DNA of 5,727 bases from a virus (IMGVR_UViG_3300045988_011597); one strand, 5' to 3'; numbered from the stretch's first letter, positions 1 to 5,727 are shown. The notes: generated by a model from the sequence alone, not told the origin. Made by a program: numbers and translations.

Positions 1-43
1 AAAAAAAAAAAAAACGCAAGCCTGATTTTCGTCAGACTCACGT
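1..43 (-). terminator. Rho-independent terminator for - strand transcripts
   Basis: The - sense RNA reads ACGUGAGUCUGA-CGAAAA-UCAGGCUUGCGU followed by 13 more U. That is a 12-bp stem (14..25 pairs with 32..43), a 6-nt loop and a U-tract at 1..13. Three stem pairs are G.U in the - sense RNA but C.A mismatches in the + sense, so the hairpin is better in the coding sense. It begins 13 nt after the stop codon of the 57..239 CDS. Confidence 0.8.
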
Positions 44-55
44 TTTTTTGCGGTT
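1..55. repeat. Direct terminal repeat copy A (identical to 5673..5727); circular-assembly overlap
   Basis: A14 followed by cgcaagcctgattttcgtcagactcacgtttttttgcggtt occurs identically at both window ends, by base-by-base comparison. Confidence 0.95.
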
Positions 56-56
56 T

Positions 57-239
57 TTACATTACTACGAATTCTTCGTGGTAGGTTTCTTCGTGCCGTT
101 TGCAGTAGGCGTCATAAAATTCTTGTTCTGTGCATGGTGCCATTTCCCTGTGCAGTTCTTCTCTGATTTCGTTGTCCATCAGGTTTACTGCTGCTTCGTA
201 GTCGATGTTGTTTCCGTTCTGGTCGATGACGTATTTCAT
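57..239 (-). CDS. Small highly acidic hypothetical protein (60 aa), accessory gene
   Basis: Product: MKYVIDQNGNNIDYEAAVNLMDNEIREELHREMAPCTEQEFYDAYCKRHEETYHEEFVVM. It has 15 D/E versus 5 K/R. The ATG at 239 has SD AAGGAG (247..252) 7 nt upstream. The 92-aa version in the ORF track (start 335) would run through the promoter at 279..307, so the shorter start is preferred. Confidence 0.7.
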   Translation of the reverse strand: MKYVIDQNGNNIDYEAAVNLMDNEIREELHREMAPCTEQEFYDAYCKRHEETYHEEFVVM

Positions 240-269
240 GGTTTTTCTCCTTTCGGTGTGTGTCTTTCT

Positions 270-301
270 TACACCTTTATTATACACCTTTTGCATACAC
301 T
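270..301 (-). promoter_or_regulatory. Operator-like direct repeats (A/G)GTGTA x3 at 13-nt periodicity overlapping the -10 and TSS of P1
   Basis: The + strand has TACACC at 270..275 and 283..288, and TACACT at 296..301. The same GGTGTA-N7-GGTGTA pair sits in identical register at P2. Confidence 0.5.
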
Positions 302-307
302 TGTCAA
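279..307 (-). promoter_or_regulatory. Consensus sigma70/sigmaA-type promoter P1 driving the acidic-protein gene
   Basis: The - strand reads TTGACA (302..307), a 17-nt spacer, then TATAAT (279..284). Both hexamers match consensus perfectly at optimal spacing, and the -10 lies about 40 nt upstream of the ATG at 239. Confidence 0.75.
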
Positions 308-324
308 CTACTTTTCGGTTGGTA

Positions 325-392
325 GGCTTGCCCATCAGACTCCCCGCCGCAGCGGCTCCGCTGTTAAGCTATTTGCGGCAAGCCGTCAGACT
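325..392. other. GC-rich structured spacer between the VP4 stop and P1, carrying terminator-related motifs
   Basis: ggcttgcc (325..332) is the reverse complement of ggcaagcc (377..384). The nested palindromes gccgc-a-gcggc and cagcgg-ct-ccgctg lie at about 345..364. tcagact follows each arm (335..341 and 386..392). Confidence 0.5.
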
Positions 393-425
393 TTGTGTCA
401 GCTGCCCCGCCTGCTTTATTTGCAT

Positions 426-1541
426 TTATATTTCTTCTCTTATCAGCTTTGTAAATTTATCTTGATTCTTTCGGTCTTTTGCGTCATAATATTCTTGCAT
501 GGTCAAGCCGGTCTGTTTGAGCTGGGCAAAGAGTGCATCGTTCGCGATTCTTCGCCGTTCGCGTTTGATGGCTTTCAGCTCTTCTGATTCGGCTTTTACT
601 ATTGTGTCTTCAATTCCCTCGCTTTCTGCTTCGGATAGTGGTGCAGCATTCGAATGTTCCAGATCAAAGAGTTTATCAAAGTATCTTGGTGGTTTGCATC
701 GTTTTCCGTTTTTCAGCTGGATTTCATCTTTTTTATAGATTTCTTCTTTGTGCTCCTCATAGTATTGCATTCCGATTGCCGGTGCTTTGCTCATCATGCA
801 TCGTTCTGGCAGCACTCCGAGTTCTTCGTAGTATTTTGCTGAGTCTTTGCCGTATATTTTTTTTGTGGTGTATCTGGCTGTGTATGCCATGTTTTTCCAT
901 TCTGCTGGTGCTATGACCACATGACCCATACCCCAGATTTTTGTTATCCAGTCTACATTGTAGTATCTGAATCCATTTTTTTGTTTGTAAACTTTGAGTT
1001 CGTCTTGTTTTATTGGTAGGTCATATACGATTGCATGATAATGCGGTCTGTGTGTCTGGCTTCCGTATTCGCCTGCCTGATAGTACATCAGTTTTCCGGT
1101 GTTTCTTTCATGGTATTCTAACCAGCGTCTTAGGCGTTTCCAAAATTTTTGCATGTCCTCATAGTTGAGTGTTAAGTTTTCTATGATGATTTCGCCTGTT
1201 TTTTTGTTAATGCCTAAACCCTGATTATAAGACCATGGTACATGTTCATTGTCGTATGTAAGTGTTAAAAACCATGCGTTTTCATGGTATGGCAGCTCCA
1301 TTTCCATCCTGTTTGCCCAGCTGCTTGCATTTTGCATTTTACAGCCTGCACAGTGTCCGCATGGTAGAATTTGCGCGTTTTCGTCTTTCAGCTTACGCAG
1401 CAGCTTTTTTTCTAGGCTTTCTTCCCAGAATGGTCCTTCAAAATTTTGCTGGTTGTTGTGTCTCTTGCCTGCCAGCAGGTATTTTTTCAGGGTCGTTATT
1501 TCGCCGTCTGCGAACCTGATCAGTGGTCTCGTGCACCCCAT
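426..1541 (-). CDS. VP4: Replication initiation protein VP4 (HUH rolling-circle endonuclease, Microviridae Rep)
   Basis: 371 aa. RCR motif I FLTLTY is at aa 91-96. HUH motif HYHAIVY was verified at 1023..1043. The catalytic double-Tyr motif YTARYTTKK was verified at 858..884. A CGHCAGC Cys cluster is at aa 61-67. SD GGGGTG lies upstream of the ATG at 1541. Confidence 0.9.
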   Translation of the reverse strand: MGCTRPLIRFADGEITTLKKYLLAGKRHNNQQNFEGPFWEESLEKKLLRKLKDENAQILPCGHCAGCKMQNASSWANRMEMELPYHENAWFLTLTYDNEHVPWSYNQGLGINKKTGEIIIENLTLNYEDMQKFWKRLRRWLEYHERNTGKLMYYQAGEYGSQTHRPHYHAIVYDLPIKQDELKVYKQKNGFRYYNVDWITKIWGMGHVVIAPAEWKNMAYTARYTTKKIYGKDSAKYYEELGVLPERCMMSKAPAIGMQYYEEHKEEIYKKDEIQLKNGKRCKPPRYFDKLFDLEHSNAAPLSEAESEGIEDTIVKAESEELKAIKRERRRIANDALFAQLKQTGLTMQEYYDAKDRKNQDKFTKLIREEI

Positions 1542-1564: not shown

Positions 1565-1610
1565 TCAGTGGGCCCCAATAACCGCTCTTGATGTTATTGG
1601 GGCCCACTGA
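1565..1610. other. Perfect 18-bp GC-rich inverted repeat (hairpin) with 10-nt loop, between the RHH gene and VP4
   Basis: 1565..1582 (tcagtgggccccaataac) pairs without mismatch to 1593..1610 (gttattggggcccactga). The loop is cgctcttgat. On the + strand a T8 run follows at 1616..1623 after a 5-nt gap. On the - strand there is no U-run after the stem. Confidence 0.85.
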
Positions 1611-1635
1611 CACAATTTTTTTTGTCAAGCCTGAT

Positions 1636-1845
1636 TTACTCATGGACTTTTGTTGTTTTGATGTTCCATTCATTTGCGAATGTGTAGCCTGTTACCTGTG
1701 TGCAATATGCTGCTATTGCGTCTCTGATAATGTCGCTTGTGTTCCCGCTCCATCCTCTGAGTATCATTTCATCTTTGATGGCTTCTAGTGCTGTGATTTC
1801 TCTGTCTGTGAGATTGATGTTGATTCTTTTTGTTACGTTTTTCAT
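1636..1845 (-). CDS. Ribbon-helix-helix (CopG/Arc/MetJ-like) DNA-binding protein, 69 aa
   Basis: Product starts MKNVTKRININLTDREITALEAIKDEMILRGWSGNTSDIIRDAIAAYC... It shows a beta-strand (RININL), helix A, a turn (SGNTS) and helix B (DIIRDAIAAY), which fits the RHH pattern. SD AAGGGG lies 7 nt upstream of the ATG at 1845. It has its own promoter P2. Confidence 0.7.
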   Translation of the reverse strand: MKNVTKRININLTDREITALEAIKDEMILRGWSGNTSDIIRDAIAAYCTQVTGYTFANEWNIKTTKVHE

Positions 1846-1880
1846 TATTTTACCCCTTTCTAGGTGAGGCGTGTGATTAG

Positions 1881-1899
1881 TACACCCATAATATACACC
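1881..1899 (-). promoter_or_regulatory. Operator-like direct repeats GGTGTA-N7-GGTGTA overlapping the -10 and TSS of P2
   Basis: The + strand has TACACC at 1881..1886 and 1894..1899. Spacing (13 nt) and register relative to the -10 are the same as at P1. Confidence 0.5.
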
Positions 1900-1918
1900 C
1901 CTTTTCTTTGTTTGTCAA
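1890..1918 (-). promoter_or_regulatory. Near-consensus sigma70/sigmaA-type promoter P2 driving RHH gene and probably VP4
   Basis: The - strand reads TTGACA (1913..1918), a 17-nt spacer, then TATATT (1890..1895). The -35 starts immediately after the VP2 stop codon (1919..1921). Confidence 0.7.
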
Positions 1919-2899
1919 TTATTTACGGTTTCTCGGGTCTGTTTTTCTAGCGAAGTCTGTTATGTTGTCGTAGTGGTCCATTCCGGTCATTTCGCTTTCG
2001 TTTTTGTTTCCGTTTTTGTTTCCGTATCTCTGGTTCGGTGCCAGACCTGCAAGTTTTTTGTTGCTTTCGTTTTCGTTTCGGTTGCTGCTTGTGATATTTT
2101 GCATATTTTTTGCGGATGTGCTCCCTACTTGGTTTGCCATCTGCTGCATGTTGGATGCAATTCCATATTGGTTTGTTTCTTTTGCGGTGTTGATCACTTG
2201 CATTGCGTTTTGGAGGAACTGCGCTGTGTTGTTACCGTAATCGTACATTGCTTGCATGTTTGCGGTGTGCGCTGTCGGTATGGCTGCGCTCTGCGTGTGG
2301 CTAAAGCTTTGGATGCCACTGCTTGCTGTTCCGCCGCTCGGTGCCTGACCTGCGCCGAATCCGTTGTATGCTGCAAGTACAGGGTTAAGCCCTGCTGCTT
2401 TCATGTCGGTAACGCCGCGCTGGTAACTGGTGTTGCTCATGCGTTCTTGCCATGCGCGTTGTGTTGCAGCTTCGTTTGAGTTGTAGCGCTGTGCGCTTGT
2501 CTGGCTTGCTAAGTTCAGGCCGTTGGCGAACATGTTCGAGAACATGTTCATGGTGTTTGCCATGCTCCACATTCCGCTTTGCAGGTTGTTTGCTGTCTGT
2601 GCCTGTCCTGCGTTGAATGCTCCGGCTGCTCCTGCGTTGTTTCCTGTCGGCGTTCCCATTGCTGTTTTCAGCGCGTCTACGATGCCTGATACACTGCCGG
2701 TTTTTACGCTTGCACCGCTTTCGCTGCTGCTGCCTGCGGTCGTGCTGCTCATGTTGCTGCTTGTGTCGGCTGTGCTGTTCATGCTCTGCTGTCCGCTGCT
2801 CGAACTGATGTTTTTTAACCCGCTCTGCAGCAGACTGCCGCCCACGTTGATCATTGCCGGTAAGCCGTATTGTATAAGTGCTCCTAGGATTGGATCCAT
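1919..2899 (-). CDS. VP2: Minor capsid / DNA pilot protein VP2
   Basis: 326 aa. It sits directly downstream of VP1. It has a hydrophobic N-terminus ([21 protein letters not shown]), S/T/N/Q/G/A-rich low-complexity flanks, and a conserved-looking core [20 protein letters not shown] typical of gokushovirus VP2. SD AAGGGGGTG starts right after the VP1 stop. Confidence 0.8.
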
Positions 2900-2910
2900 G
2901 TTGCACCCCC

Positions 2911-4557
2911 TTAGATTGTGTCAAGGCCCGGCACACTGTATACCGGCATCGGTCGTGTCCAGCTCTGGTCGAAGAAAAAGTTGCAGATAAACTGGTGACT
3001 GTTGCTTGACTGTACTGCAAGTGTTCTGTCGATGTTTTCCGTTCCTTCTTTGATCCAGCTGCTGGAGAGCGTCGGAAGTGTGTCGTACTTGTCTGCGTAG
3101 TGCCATGCGTCCAGAGTCTGAGCGTAGGTGCTGCGCATTTCGCTGGTTACCATGTTCGTCCTGTAGCGGTAGTCCGCCCAGGCCTCCTGATAACCGAATA
3201 CTTCTTCATCCTTTTCGGTCCCCTGTGCATAGATTTCGCGGTTAAGTACGGCCTGTTCCCCGAGGTTTGCAAGCATCGGATCATAGTAGCTAAATCGTGT
3301 GGTTCTCGTCCACATGCGCGGCAGTCCCTGCTGATAGCTGTGATCTACTCGGATTGCTGCCAGTCCCAGCACATAGCCATGCTCTGTTGCGCTGTAGGTG
3401 CACATGTTCCGGCTCATGGTCGTCATGGAGTATGCTGCAGTGTTGCCCTGCGGAGACGTGCTGTCGGTGCTGGATGTCTGAATCACCTGATTGATATTGA
3501 TCGGCAGTCGATATCCGCCGATATATTCGCTCCGGTCAAGTCGTGCGTCTGGGCTGGTTACTCCCCATGCGCCTTTCAGGATTTCTTTGTACCGCGTGCC
3601 GGTTCTTGCATCTCGTTCAAAGATGTGCTGCACTGCGATGGCTTGCCGCAGTTCGTTGATGGTTGCGCCTGCTACGTTGCTCAGGTCTGCCCATAAGTAT
3701 CCGCCGTCACCTTGTGTGCCTGCTGATGTTCGAGCGCCGATTACTTGTGTGGCTAGTTTCGGGTAGCCTGGTGTCGTGAAGCTCATGTTGTGCATGCTTC
3801 CTTGTGCATTTGCTGCTGTTGAGTTGAGATAGATGTATTGCGTTGTTGGGTATTCTTTTCCATCGGCGAAGCCCATAAAGATAGGTGCATTGCCAAGCAT
3901 CGGAATGGTTACCGGTTCGCTTGCTTTCTGCGGAGATGGCAGGCAGCTGGTGAAGTAGTCTTTGTACTTACAGACCTTCAAAGGCAAACCGCCTGCTTCT
4001 GCGTCGGTCAAGGCCGTGCCGGTGTTGCTGCCTGCGGTCGTCGTGTCGTCTTTGCTCTGTGTGACAGGCTGCTGCAGGTTTTCGTCCCTGAACCACTCGT
4101 TCCAGATTTTTGCATATGCTCTGAACGGCATACTGTTGACGCTCAGACCTTTCACGCCGGTCGGGATGCCCATATAATCCGCGATCGTGCCCACGTTCCA
4201 GCCGTTTTCCGGTGCAGTTGTCTGCGGAGTGGTGTATTCGGTTGTTTCTGCCCAGAAAGTGGAGTCGTTCTGTCCCATCAGGTTTTCGAAGTGGTTCCAC
4301 AGCAGTCGTGCCGGCACGAAGAAAAAGTAAAAGTCGATGTTTGCGTTATCCATGACAGGATAAAGCGGAGTCGCCATGCGCACCAGCGCGTTCAGGTTGA
4401 TCTTGAAAGTATCTGCAGGAAGTACCTCGTCAACGTAGATCGGTACAAGGTCGCCTTCGTTCATCGTGGTCAGCAGGTTAAAAGGCCGGTCGAATTTTGC
4501 GCGTCGGATTTCTGCATGCGGCACCTGTGCAAAGTGCTGCTCACTGTTTCTGTTCAT
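2911..4557 (-). CDS. VP1: Major capsid protein VP1 (Microviridae F-like jelly-roll capsid)
   Basis: 548 aa. The N-terminal signature is [43 protein letters not shown]...[27 protein letters not shown], characteristic of gokushovirus VP1. SD GAGGT lies 8 nt upstream of the ATG at 4557. Confidence 0.93.
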
Positions 4558-5050
4558 CTGCGTTTACCTCGTTTTTCGTCATTTTGTCGGTTCCGTTGTT
4601 CTGATCAGCCTGTGCTGCAGGATCGTTTTTCGTCGAAATGCCCATTTTTTCGAGCCATTCTTCTTCGCCTGCGGTTGCTGCCCAGTTCTGGAAGTTCATG
4701 CCGAACTTCTGCCTGATCTCCAGCGGCAGCTGGTCGAACTTTTCCCGCTGCTCGTTCATCAGGTTCAGGTATTCTGTGTACGTTTTCGGCAGTTTGGTTG
4801 TGTCGATGTAGTATCCCGGAGTTGCCAAAGCGCTTTCATCGCCTGCGGCGTATCGGCTGAGGATTGCCATTACGTCGCATTCGTCGCGGTAGCTCTGGAT
4901 TTTTTCGTAGGTGTTGACCTCTCCGACTTTTACAAGATACGGATGGCCTTTTTCGTCATATCGTTCTTTATACTCTGGTTCGAGCACGTTGCCTGCACAG
5001 TTCGGCTTTGCTTCTGGCTTCTCCTTTTCATACGGCTTGAAGATTTTCAT
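4541..5050 (-). CDS. VP3: Internal scaffolding protein VP3
   Basis: 169 aa. The ...YRDECDVMAILSRY... and ...FDQLPLEIRQKFGMNFQNW... blocks match the conserved ECDI and FDxLPxxIRxxFG pattern of Chlamydia-phage-type VP3. SD GGAGG lies 8 nt upstream. Its start overlaps the upstream gene stop as ATGA, and it overlaps the VP1 start by 17 nt. Confidence 0.8.
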   Translation of the reverse strand: MKIFKPYEKEKPEAKPNCAGNVLEPEYKERYDEKGHPYLVKVGEVNTYEKIQSYRDECDVMAILSRYAAGDESALATPGYYIDTTKLPKTYTEYLNLMNEQREKFDQLPLEIRQKFGMNFQNWAATAGEEEWLEKMGISTKNDPAAQADQNNGTDKMTKNEVNADEQKQ

Positions 5051-5325
5051 GCTTTCTTCCTCCGTGCCGGTTTTGCTGCCGGTTCCGTCATGGCTTTCTT
5101 TTCCTGCTCGATGTTGTAGACCAGTTCCGGCTGCTGCGGCATGATCTGGCCGGTTTCGGTGTCGTATTCGCCAAGCTTGTAAATGCGCTTGTCCTCGCAG
5201 TCCTGCTTTTCGGTTTCTTCGGTCAGCCAGTGGAAAGTACGCTGCGCCACTTTCGGGTTGATCACCATCAGATTGCCATATGTCCCCGCGAGTTCGTCCT
5301 TAATGCTGTAAATTTCGAGAATCAT
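5047..5325 (-). CDS. VP5: VP5-like small non-structural protein of gokushoviruses (92 aa from the ATG at 5325)
   Basis: MILEIYSIKDELAGTYGNLMVINPKVAQRTF...RIYKLGEYDTETGQI fits my recollection of the VP5/ORF5 pattern (M-x-I-F/Y-x-I-Y/F-D...A-x-R-x-F...Y-x-L-G-x-F/Y-D-x-x-T-G). AAGGAG lies 13 nt upstream of the ATG at 5325. The track start at 5367 adds 14 residues with no better RBS, so the start is uncertain. Confidence 0.6.
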   Translation of the reverse strand: MILEIYSIKDELAGTYGNLMVINPKVAQRTFHWLTEETEKQDCEDKRIYKLGEYDTETGQIMPQQPELVYNIEQEKKAMTEPAAKPARRKKA

Positions 5326-5524
5326 TTTCGTTGTTCCACTCCTTTTCGATTTGTTCATACAGTTCATCTTTGTGCCTGAGTCCTACTTTGATTGCTGCGC
5401 GTCCTGTGGTTGACAGGCTCGTTCGTTCTGCTTTTGCCCATTCGACGATTTCTGCAGCAGTCTCAGCTCCGACATAGATGTTCATCGTTGATTTAGGGTC
5501 TTCGCTTCTTCGGTATCCTTTCAC
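5300..5524 (-). CDS. Second RHH-like small protein (74 aa from the GTG at 5524; alternative ATG at 5485 gives 61 aa)
   Basis: The core MNIYVGAETAAEIVEWAKAERTSLSTTGRAAIKVGL fits a strand-helix-turn-helix RHH layout, preceded by the basic arm KGYRRSEDPKST. The GTG at 5524..5522 has SD GGGGAGGA 8 nt upstream and overlaps the TGA of the upstream basic ORF as GTGA. The 115-aa track call starts at a GTG only 1 nt from the SD, which is not credible. Confidence 0.5.
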   Translation of the reverse strand: MKGYRRSEDPKSTMNIYVGAETAAEIVEWAKAERTSLSTTGRAAIKVGLRHKDELYEQIEKEWNNENDSRNLQH

Positions 5525-5640
5525 AGCCTGATTCCTCCCCGGCTCGGCTTCGGCGAAATATTGATTTTTTTCGTCTTCTTCGCCGTGTTGGTAAAGATTT
5601 TCTTGTCGGTTTTCGGTTTTACGGTCTTTCTGTATGCCAT
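5521..5640 (-). CDS. Hidden 39-aa highly basic protein, candidate DNA-condensing/packaging protein (phiX174 J / gokushovirus VP8 analogue)
   Basis: Hand-translated product: MAYRKTVKPKTDKKIFTNTAKKTKKINISPKPSRGGIRL. It has 13 K/R and 1 D. The ATG at 5640 is preceded by the best SD in the genome, AAGGAGG (5649..5655), with an 8-nt spacer. It is the first gene after the terminator. It falls below the length of every ORF in the supplied track. Confidence 0.6.
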   Translation of the reverse strand: MAYRKTVKPKTDKKIFTNTAKKTKKINISPKPSRGGIRL

Positions 5641-5664: not shown

Positions 5665-5691
5665 ATTTTAACAAAAAAAAAAAAAACGCAA
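5665..5691 (-). promoter_or_regulatory. Weak candidate promoter for the structural operon, with the T14 tract as spacer
   Basis: The - strand reads TTGCGT (5686..5691), a 15-nt spacer (T13 + GT), then TAAAAT (5665..5670). The -35 match is poor and the spacer is short. It is listed only because no other promoter precedes the late genes. Confidence 0.2.
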
Positions 5692-5727
5692 GCCTGATTT
5701 TCGTCAGACTCACGTTTTTTTGCGGTT
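5673..5727. repeat. Direct terminal repeat copy B (identical to 1..55). It carries a second image of the terminator, at 5673..5715.
   Basis: Same 55-mer as 1..55. It is the same physical locus in the circular molecule. Confidence 0.95.

Follow-up and report, generated by a model that had tools for sequence, protein, structure and literature searches.

The 5,727-nt DNA stretch IMGVR_UViG_3300045988_011597 (the window, meaning the whole stretch that was analysed) carries two promoters on which the hexamer GGTGTA recurs in the same register, and this raises the question of which protein recognizes the repeat and which genes it would control. Because bases 1..55 recur at 5673..5727, the genome is circular and 5672 nt long, and its minus strand encodes all genes of the window. 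By sequence, it is a gokushovirus-like member of the Microviridae, a circular single-stranded DNA (ssDNA) phage of the human gut. In this study, we believe that the repeats, written RGTGTA in general form, are probably operator sub-sites of a repressor that the phage itself encodes, the ribbon-helix-helix (RHH) candidate RHH-A (1845..1636, minus strand). We likewise consider it probable that RHH-A acts as a CopG-like autorepressor of the operon that it forms with the replication gene rep, and as a repressor of an anti-defence cassette in the manner of anti-CRISPR-associated (Aca) proteins. The binding of RHH-A, the resulting repression and the transcription start sites are what we infer from the sequence.

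The original prediction named two near-consensus promoters, and these are the top two sigma-70-like sites in the whole window. P1 (minus strand, 307..279) reads TTGACA AGTGTATGCAAAAGGTG TATAAT AAAGGTGTA, and P2 (minus strand, 1918..1890) reads TTGACA AACAAAGAAAAGGGGTG TATATT ATGGGTGTA. They match the consensus at 12/12 and 11/12 positions, respectively, with spacers of 17 nt, in agreement with sigma-70 hexamers and spacing. The -35 and -10 hexamers lie at 302..307 and 279..284 in P1 and at 1913..1918, one base past the stop codon of the pilot protein gene VP2, and 1890..1895 in P2. In both promoters, GGTGTA occupies the predicted register, covering the -10 and the likely start site. In P1, site 1 (283..288) covers the first two bases of the -10, and site 2 (270..275) covers approximately -3 to +3 of the presumed start site, which was placed solely from the position of the -10. 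In P2, site 1 (1894..1899) overlaps the -10 and site 2 (1881..1886) lies over the presumed start site. The third P1 copy that had been described, AGTGTA at 296..301 (site 0, GTGT core at offset -12 from site 1), is also present. A fourth element had been overlooked, namely an inverted ACAC core 13 nt further downstream (site 3, offset +27), which in P1 lies at 261..258 within CACACACC (262..255). The window P1 carries all four sites (301..296, 288..283, 275..270 and 261..258); the window P2 has the inner two intact and the outer ones degenerate. At its site 3 (1869..1874), ACAC stands at 1874..1871, that is, at offset +25 and 2 nt off register, and the +27 register reads ACGC.

GGTGTA or its complement TACACC occurs six times on both strands of the window compared with 1.29 expected, and none of 200 shuffles gave six or more. 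Four of the six occurrences are the P1 and P2 pairs; the genome-wide count proposed earlier thus found the hexamer scarce beyond the two promoters. The pair GGTGTA-N7-GGTGTA with at most two mismatches occurs three times against 0.15 expected, twice overlapping in P1 and once in P2, and nowhere else. When P1 and P2 were aligned on the -35, the positions of the -35, the -10 and the hexamers were identical at 21/22, and the remaining positions at 13/33. From base composition, the chance that the ten free hexamer bases recur in register is approximately 3e-7. These in-register repeats at P1 and P2 are real and not a product of chance. Their spacing had been described as about one helical turn; the measured 13 bp corresponds to approximately 1.24 turns. 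We also considered GGTG as an extended -10 or "-16 TRTG" element and rejected it, because TG directly abuts TATAAT and is out of register, and shifting the -10 by one base leaves a poor hexamer.

Relatives were gathered in three ways, by searching with RHH-A (13 loci), with Rep alone (53 genomes) and with DNA patterns. The Rep-only sample consists of 53 distinct microvirus genomes with Rep identities of 51-100%, and its selection was independent of the motif. In 52 of the 53, RGTGTA-N7-RGTGTA, with site 1 as in the window P2 and RGTGTA at site 2, lies inside a TTGACA-17-TATAWT promoter directly 5' of an RHH-A homologue, which is followed by rep; the 53rd contig ends at the position of the array. 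The same promoter-RHH-A-rep arrangement was found in four GenBank gokushoviruses from pig and human faeces. As had been suggested, conservation of the repeats was compared with that of their flanks: the two hexamers hold 2.0 and 1.83 bits per position and the third element 1.61, against 0.29 upstream of the -35 and 0.54 downstream. DNA 5' of the -35 is unrelated between lineages and the hexamers are near-invariant. The consensus sequences of P1 and P2 have in common the -35, the -10 and the hexamers, and no other part.

The 13-nt periodicity is exact when GTGT and ACAC are tallied at each offset. GTGT stands at -12 (86%), +1 (97%) and +14 (79%) in the 29 P1 copies, and at +1 and +14 in all 51 P2 copies (100%), where inverted ACAC stands at +27 (96%) and -12 (43%). 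Some P2 variants have a direct AGTGTA or GATGTA at -12 in place of ACAC. The P1 type is therefore built of three direct cores, with one inverted core in some genomes, the window's included, and the P2 type of two direct cores between inverted cores; the array is approximately 45 bp long, from the -35 to about +15. A permissive DNA-pattern scan of viral contigs gave many non-microvirus hits, which were discarded as their number was within the chance range for 14 specified bases; RHH-A was present in none. Two of these scan hits, L059 and L069, also share the P1 upstream flank; they lie inside a 545-aa structural gene in which the motif encodes ...VYNKGV....

Which protein accompanies this array? 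The original prediction offered two RHH candidates. The one at 1636..1845 has held up as the conserved partner of the array, and the one at 5300..5524 (RHH-B) is sporadic. RHH-A has 69 aa and lies between VP2 and rep as the first gene of the P2 operon. In a family whose identity drops to approximately 30%, there is little or no variation at K6, R7, N9, N11, L12 and T13, which lie in the predicted beta-strand, or at S37, D38 and R41, where helix 2 starts. In RHH proteins, the face of the beta-strand reads the DNA and the start of helix 2 contacts the phosphate. The conserved residues of RHH-A would thus be its DNA-contact elements, which matches an invariant half-site. In an AlphaFold2 model of the monomer (predicted local distance difference test score 79), residues 1-13 are extended and residues 14-29 and 36-52 form helices. 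An N-terminal strand, two helices and a conserved polar strand and helix-2 start, as modelled, are those of the RHH topology. The top Foldseek hits of the model include the RHH proteins AtaR, Reg576 and SegB, with E-values that are not significant. Against Pfam RHH_1, the window protein gave a weak match (E=0.072), and 7 of the 19 family members matched below the cut-off (best E=6.4e-4). The family profile matched TTHA0139 in the PDB (E=0.019). Among distant relatives detected by profile, P0164 passes RHH_1 (22.8 bits, cut-off 20.5), and a further four align over the whole domain with scores under the cut-off.

A collection of 5.8 billion proteins holds 362 homologues of RHH-A, and of the 120 listed all but one come from contigs no longer than 5.9 kb; among 1.84 billion representatives, the family makes up 47 clusters at 50% identity. 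The relatives from the family search are almost exclusively on microvirus-sized contigs, and a search of 185,579 species genomes of bacteria and archaea gave neither RHH-A nor the array. The gene has no annotation in GenBank KX513873, and in MG945186 and MG945797 the regions matched by tblastn likewise carry no annotated feature. Two outgroup observations fit a pairing of RHH-A with the array. The microvirus L272 (Rep 36% identical) has no RHH gene 5' of rep and no array; its own RHH gene is located after rep, behind an AT-rich palindromic promoter. Similarly, a distant RHH protein with a different strand (KQVQVRLT) has a promoter with different repeats, ATCAG in four copies.

The second gene of the P2 operon is rep (VP4, 426..1541, minus strand), encoding an HUH rolling-circle initiator (Pfam REP_ORF2-G2P, E=3.2e-15; phrog_942, E=2.5e-98). 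All relatives preserve the order P2, RHH-A, hairpin, rep, which is the gene order of CopG-type units. The window scan found no promoter- or terminator-like site on the minus strand between RHH-A and rep, and both genes would be co-transcribed from P2. The hairpin (1565..1610), a perfect 18-bp stem with a 10-nt loop, lies between the RHH-A stop at 1636 and the rep start at 1541. It is unlike an operon terminator because the minus (coding) strand has no U tract. Approximately 50 relatives have a hairpin of 15-18 bp at the same place, with stems that differ by compensatory changes, a conserved loop, CATCAAGAGG, and a conserved 5' flank, AAATTTTGTGTCA; it is a candidate for a replication origin, a nick site or a complementary-strand origin.

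P1 drives a different kind of unit. The promoter, with its -35, is kept in 29 of the 53 genomes at a constant site after rep and a GC-rich spacer (308..430 in the window, where the fold is no more stable than that of shuffles). P1 copies always precede a small open reading frame (ORF), followed by the same terminator, which in the window has an 18-bp stem and a T run (8..49, minus strand). These ORFs, which we call the cargo, fall into eight or more families that are unrelated to one another. When metagenomes were scanned for the exact pattern, 25 further P1 copies with cargo from these families came to light, and at least nine of the copies are on contigs labelled human gut metagenome. In L013, which lacks the cargo ORF, P1 has decayed to TTAACA, AGTGCA and GATGTA, and in L012 the cassette is fused and degenerate. 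Loss or fusion of the cargo is thus accompanied by decay of the -35 and the hexamers, and the P1 array is therefore tied to the expression of the cargo and not to replication or packaging.

The window cargo had been described as an acidic protein, and can now be named more exactly. An upstream ATG gives rise to the artefactual 92-aa ORF 57..335; the true start of the gene, preceded by a GGAG ribosome-binding site, is at 239, and 57..239 (minus strand) encodes 60 aa. Pfam PF22147 (AcrIC5) matches this protein with E=2.7e-26 and 91.9 bits (cut-off 27) over 52/53 profile positions, and AcrIC5 in the PDB (7yhr) with E=1.1e-11. By these sequence matches, the acidic protein is a homologue of the anti-CRISPR AcrIC5. 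According to León et al. (PMC7913775), AcrIC5 inhibits type I-C systems and has orthologues in Proteobacteria, Firmicutes and Actinobacteria; the anti-CRISPR activity was established for the Pseudomonas protein (PMC7913775). The other P1 cargo families are candidate anti-defence proteins. A Pfam scan of ten of the other cargo proteins and an NCBIfam scan of one gave no significant match. The cargo proteins have 40-85 aa (L003, L006, L011, L023, L031, L034, L135, L138, L139, L148 and L244-L268); the commonest family reads ALYDGGWR...EWTxAICEKLKEYE, and another is Cys-rich (DYRYEHCDGxCExCPCH).

The original prediction linked the RHH/Rep unit and the acidic-protein cassette into one regulon, and the relatives speak for it, with the array 5' of RHH-A and rep and with P1 copies in front of exchangeable cargo. 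The link is further borne out by GenBank MG945373.1 from pig faeces, where the cargo lies inside the RHH operon. There, a four-site promoter of the P2 type precedes an AcrIC5 homologue (3769..3954), an RHH-A homologue (3951..4133), the hairpin and rep, and the AcrIC5 stop overlaps the RHH-A start at 3951 via ATGA. Read from the sequence, this is the classical acr-aca order, and RHH-A lies next to acr as an Aca would. In the window itself, acr and RHH-A are in separate units with a common operator. Because of the synteny in MG945373.1, AcrIC5 holds two different positions in the clade, both behind the same operator-bearing promoter. The repeats expected in an acr promoter under Aca control are likewise seen in the sequence of P1, as phased GTGT cores over the -35-proximal region, the -10 and the putative start site.

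We speculated that the circuit would operate as follows. When the incoming ssDNA is converted to the double-stranded replicative form, both near-consensus promoters would fire, P2 yielding RHH-A and Rep and P1 the cassette gene, here the AcrIC5-type anti-CRISPR. As RHH-A builds up, its dimers would then fill the sites that cover the -10 and the start site, and RNA polymerase would be kept out or displaced. This occupancy would turn off RHH-A synthesis, rep expression and the cassette. The circuit would combine a CopG-like copy-control loop with an Aca-like brake on the anti-defence gene. More tentatively, with slightly less than even confidence, we propose that a whole clade of human and pig gut gokushoviruses runs its early genes as one such regulon, with a single RHH repressor serving both for copy control and as the Aca of an exchangeable cassette.

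Several observations weigh against the assignment of the array to RHH-A. The RHH assignment is built on sub-threshold or transitive matches and a monomer model, and one homologue (L132) has F at N11 yet unchanged hexamers. The spacing of 13 bp sets neighbouring sites approximately 85 degrees apart round the helix, unlike the one-turn sites of CopG and Arc; for binding to be cooperative, the DNA would hence have to be distorted or the geometry would have to differ. Conservation covers the whole block from the -35 to about +30, beyond the cores. Most relatives come from one IMG/VR dataset (3300045988) and are kin, so that the genome counts overstate how many independent events there were. RHH-A, Rep and the array are found together throughout the clade, and co-occurrence cannot tell RHH-A from Rep as the binder; L272, the single outgroup that was obtained, has neither an RHH gene 5' of rep nor the array.

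The breadth of the conserved block suits an explanation with no repressor, in which P1 and P2 descend from one duplicated strong promoter and the GTG ahead of the -10 and the GTGTA over the start site belong to a promoter or initial transcribed sequence that is optimal for the host RNA polymerase. It also suits this explanation that GGTGTATAAT is found in unrelated phage promoters, for example at L014 and in several pattern-scan hits, and that the P1 hexamers and the -35 degenerate in parallel upon cargo loss, as expected of a plain promoter. However, it leaves unexplained the third direct copy by the -35 of P1 and the inverted +27 copy of P2, both in the exact 13-nt phase. Recent duplication is not the cause of the identity, given that P1 and P2 differ at non-motif positions (13/33 identical). 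Other strong promoters lack the array as well. IMG/VR holds 249 stretches that encode AcrIC5 homologues; the best 80 of the 249 were examined, and all are on non-microvirus contigs except the window's own genome (L001). At 78 AcrIC5 loci from tailed gut phages, the promoters are of the consensus type and contain other inverted repeats; the GTGTA array is present in none. The presumed late promoter of the microvirus genomes themselves (TGnTAAAAT) is also without the array. We therefore regard the promoter-only explanation as unlikely.

In the acr promoters of the tailed-phage loci (L166-L243), which are near-consensus, the spacer between the -35 and the -10 contains family-specific palindromes such as TTGACATATACGGTAATACCGTATATAAT; these provide a ready set of candidate Aca operators. 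The AcrIC5 locus L014 has the canonical arrangement, with a helix-turn-helix (HTH) gene downstream (HTH_3, E=1.5e-8).

Another protein could bind the array instead of RHH-A. Rep might bind iteron-like sites and autoregulate rep in the style of geminivirus Rep, or a host regulator might bind the repeats; we consider this quite unlikely. Direct repeats are typical of iterons, and Rep accompanies the array in all 53 genomes. A replication link is also hinted at by the acidic C-terminal tail (EEEDLPF, DDDDLPY, EEDELPF) of many RHH-A homologues (L006-L013, L136 and L149; P0126, P0127, P0158 and P0160), which resembles the C-terminus of single-stranded DNA-binding protein and, by analogy, hints at recruitment of host replication proteins; the window RHH-A has no tail of the EEEDLPF type. 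However, the arrays are fixed to the promoter register and not to the origin-like hairpin beside rep, and the P1 array, missing in 24 of the 53 genomes and decaying with cargo loss, is dispensable for replication. The second array governs an anti-CRISPR gene, a known task of small dedicated repressors, and RHH-A stands directly behind the array in every genome, as is usual for autoregulators. The null result for RHH-A and the array in the 185,579 species genomes is neutral on a host factor.

An RNA or ssDNA structure is very unlikely. Site 2 and the inverted site 3 would form a hairpin at the 5' end of the mRNA or in ssDNA and affect stability or translation, perhaps alongside an operator function as for Aca2 and Aca1. 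In the 51 P2 copies, the base that opens site 2 and the one that follows site 3 do co-vary as a base pair would (A-T 23, G-C 15, G-T 13, A-C 0), but this is a single variable pair whose three states are largely lineage-bound. In addition, the presumed start lies inside site 2, which leaves most of the 5' arm untranscribed, the leader of the window folds no better than shuffles (z = -0.48), no Rfam family matches and no known RNA family is present in the window, and site 3 is absent from most P1 copies. That RHH-B (5524..5300, minus strand) binds the repeats is highly improbable, since its homologues are sporadic whereas the array is universal, although its sequence follows an RHH-like pattern and weakly matches ORF56, an RHH family of plasmid copy control (E=0.0075, below the cut-off). 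RHH-B homologues were found in one identical genome (L001) and, with weak identity (30-40%), in a minority of relatives; L002 and L003 have a different small RHH-like ORF at its position.

If RHH-A is the binder of the array, as we believe, the circuit resembles several known systems in part. In plasmid pMV158, copG and repB are co-transcribed and four CopG dimers bind four sites that span the promoter -35 and -10 (PMC2724298). Similarly, the phage has a small RHH gene immediately 5' of an HUH rolling-circle initiator gene, presumably co-transcribed, and one strong promoter with a multi-site operator (four sites, approximately 45-50 bp) over the -35 and -10, where the repressor would be autoregulatory. 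In contrast to CopG, whose operator has flanking sites one turn apart round a 13-bp pseudo-symmetric TGCA element, the four phage sites are GTGT cores of a different sequence in a 13-bp phase, both direct and inverted. Moreover, the replicon here is a virus, the same operator recurs on a second promoter that drives accessory genes, and RHH-A resembles CopG in sequence only at the level of the RHH superfamily.

Among Aca proteins, the RHH-type Aca14 (Pasteurella multocida WP_005725436.1) represses its own and the neighbouring anti-defence operon via a repeat over the -10 (bioRxiv 10.64898/2026.07.27.740549). Compared by description, the phage system likewise has a small predicted DNA-binding protein, RHH and not HTH, that is linked to acr, repeats that overlap the -10 of a strong acr promoter, and a single regulator predicted for its own operon and an anti-defence operon. 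It differs from Aca14 in that acr and the regulator of the window are 1.3 kb apart in separate units, being adjacent only in MG945373, that the regulator's operon also encodes the replication initiator, that the host element is a 5.7-kb ssDNA microvirus, and that a phased array of direct and inverted cores takes the place of the lone AT-rich inverted repeat to which one Aca14 dimer binds over the -10. In the acrIC5-aca operons of tailed phages, an AcrIC5 homologue likewise lies behind a near-consensus promoter with repeats, but the regulator is an HTH protein downstream of acr and the repeats are spacer palindromes, with no GTGTA array at the 78 loci. The RHH repressors omega and ParG have sub-sites in direct and inverted orientation. 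RHH dimers of Arc of phage P22 bind short sub-sites that overlap the promoter (PMC2724298). The phage array is like those of Arc/Mnt (P22) and omega/ParG in its short repeated sub-sites over promoters and unlike them in half-site sequence and spacing, and RHH-A has no detectable close sequence relationship to these proteins.

Taken singly, the principles are known already, namely an RHH protein that represses its own promoter, a copy-control loop on a rolling-circle rep, and an acr gene under an Aca; the new variation lies in their joint occurrence in an ssDNA phage of 5.7 kb and in the four phased sites of the operator. Literature searches found no description of anti-CRISPR genes, anti-defence cassettes, RHH proteins or transcriptional regulators in Microviridae or Gokushovirinae. 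Microviridae are among the most abundant phages of the human gut and have been treated as minimal, constitutively transcribed and without counter-defence genes. In this study, a microvirus carries a bona fide anti-CRISPR homologue, and the locus points to a regulated early/late programme in an ssDNA phage of 5.7 kb. The conserved promoter-operator-terminator cassette is a handle for finding anti-defence proteins via guilt by association, and if the early-gene regulon is true, the small and often acidic proteins of the P1 cassette, in eight or more unannotated families, would become candidates for an anti-CRISPR or anti-defence role in Microviridae. The coupling of RHH and rep mirrors the copy control of rolling-circle plasmids and fits the proposed plasmid-microvirus kinship of Rep proteins. 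The compact operator and repressor pair could also be a synthetic-biology part for Firmicutes-type promoters.

The remaining genes of the window, all on the minus strand, are those of the major capsid protein VP1 (4557..2911; Pfam Phage_F, E=1.7e-166), the scaffold VP3 (5050..4541), an ORF5-like protein (5367..5047) and the pilot protein VP2 (2899..1919). At the nucleotide level, the GenBank relatives are pig and human faecal microviruses, and the match is confined to VP1. A highly basic 39-aa ORF (5640..5521, minus strand; MAYRKTVKPK...SRGGIRL) has a strong ribosome-binding site and is kept in all relatives; the ORF list, with a threshold of at least 40 aa, did not include it. It is probably a J/VP8-like DNA-binding protein. 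Ahead of the structural genes and after the T run of the terminator, TGTTAAAAT (5673..5665, minus strand) is a probable late promoter of the extended -10 type; it has neither a -35 nor GTGTA sites, and the relatives read TGGTAAAAT at this position.

Three further observations concern the surroundings of the cassette and the genome as a whole. The 12-mer CAAGCCTGATTT, half of the terminator stem (17..28), is repeated at 1626..1637 directly after the RHH-A stop; approximately one such repeat is expected in 5.7 kb, and it could be a recombination scar or chance. In the relative L005, a 136-aa ORF replaces the P1 cassette after rep and the GTGTA promoter is absent; sequence motifs suggest that this ORF encodes an M15/VanY-type peptidase. 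In a 48-kb contig, L159 (ENA ERZ27281030 k141_41694), positions 6174..11837 (5664 nt) hold an almost complete copy of a related microvirus, joined to plasmid-like or integrative and conjugative element-like genes (ParM-like ALP_N, HTH and ABC transporter). This copy could be an integrated microvirus, that is, a prophage, or an assembly chimera, and the integration, if real, would give a host.

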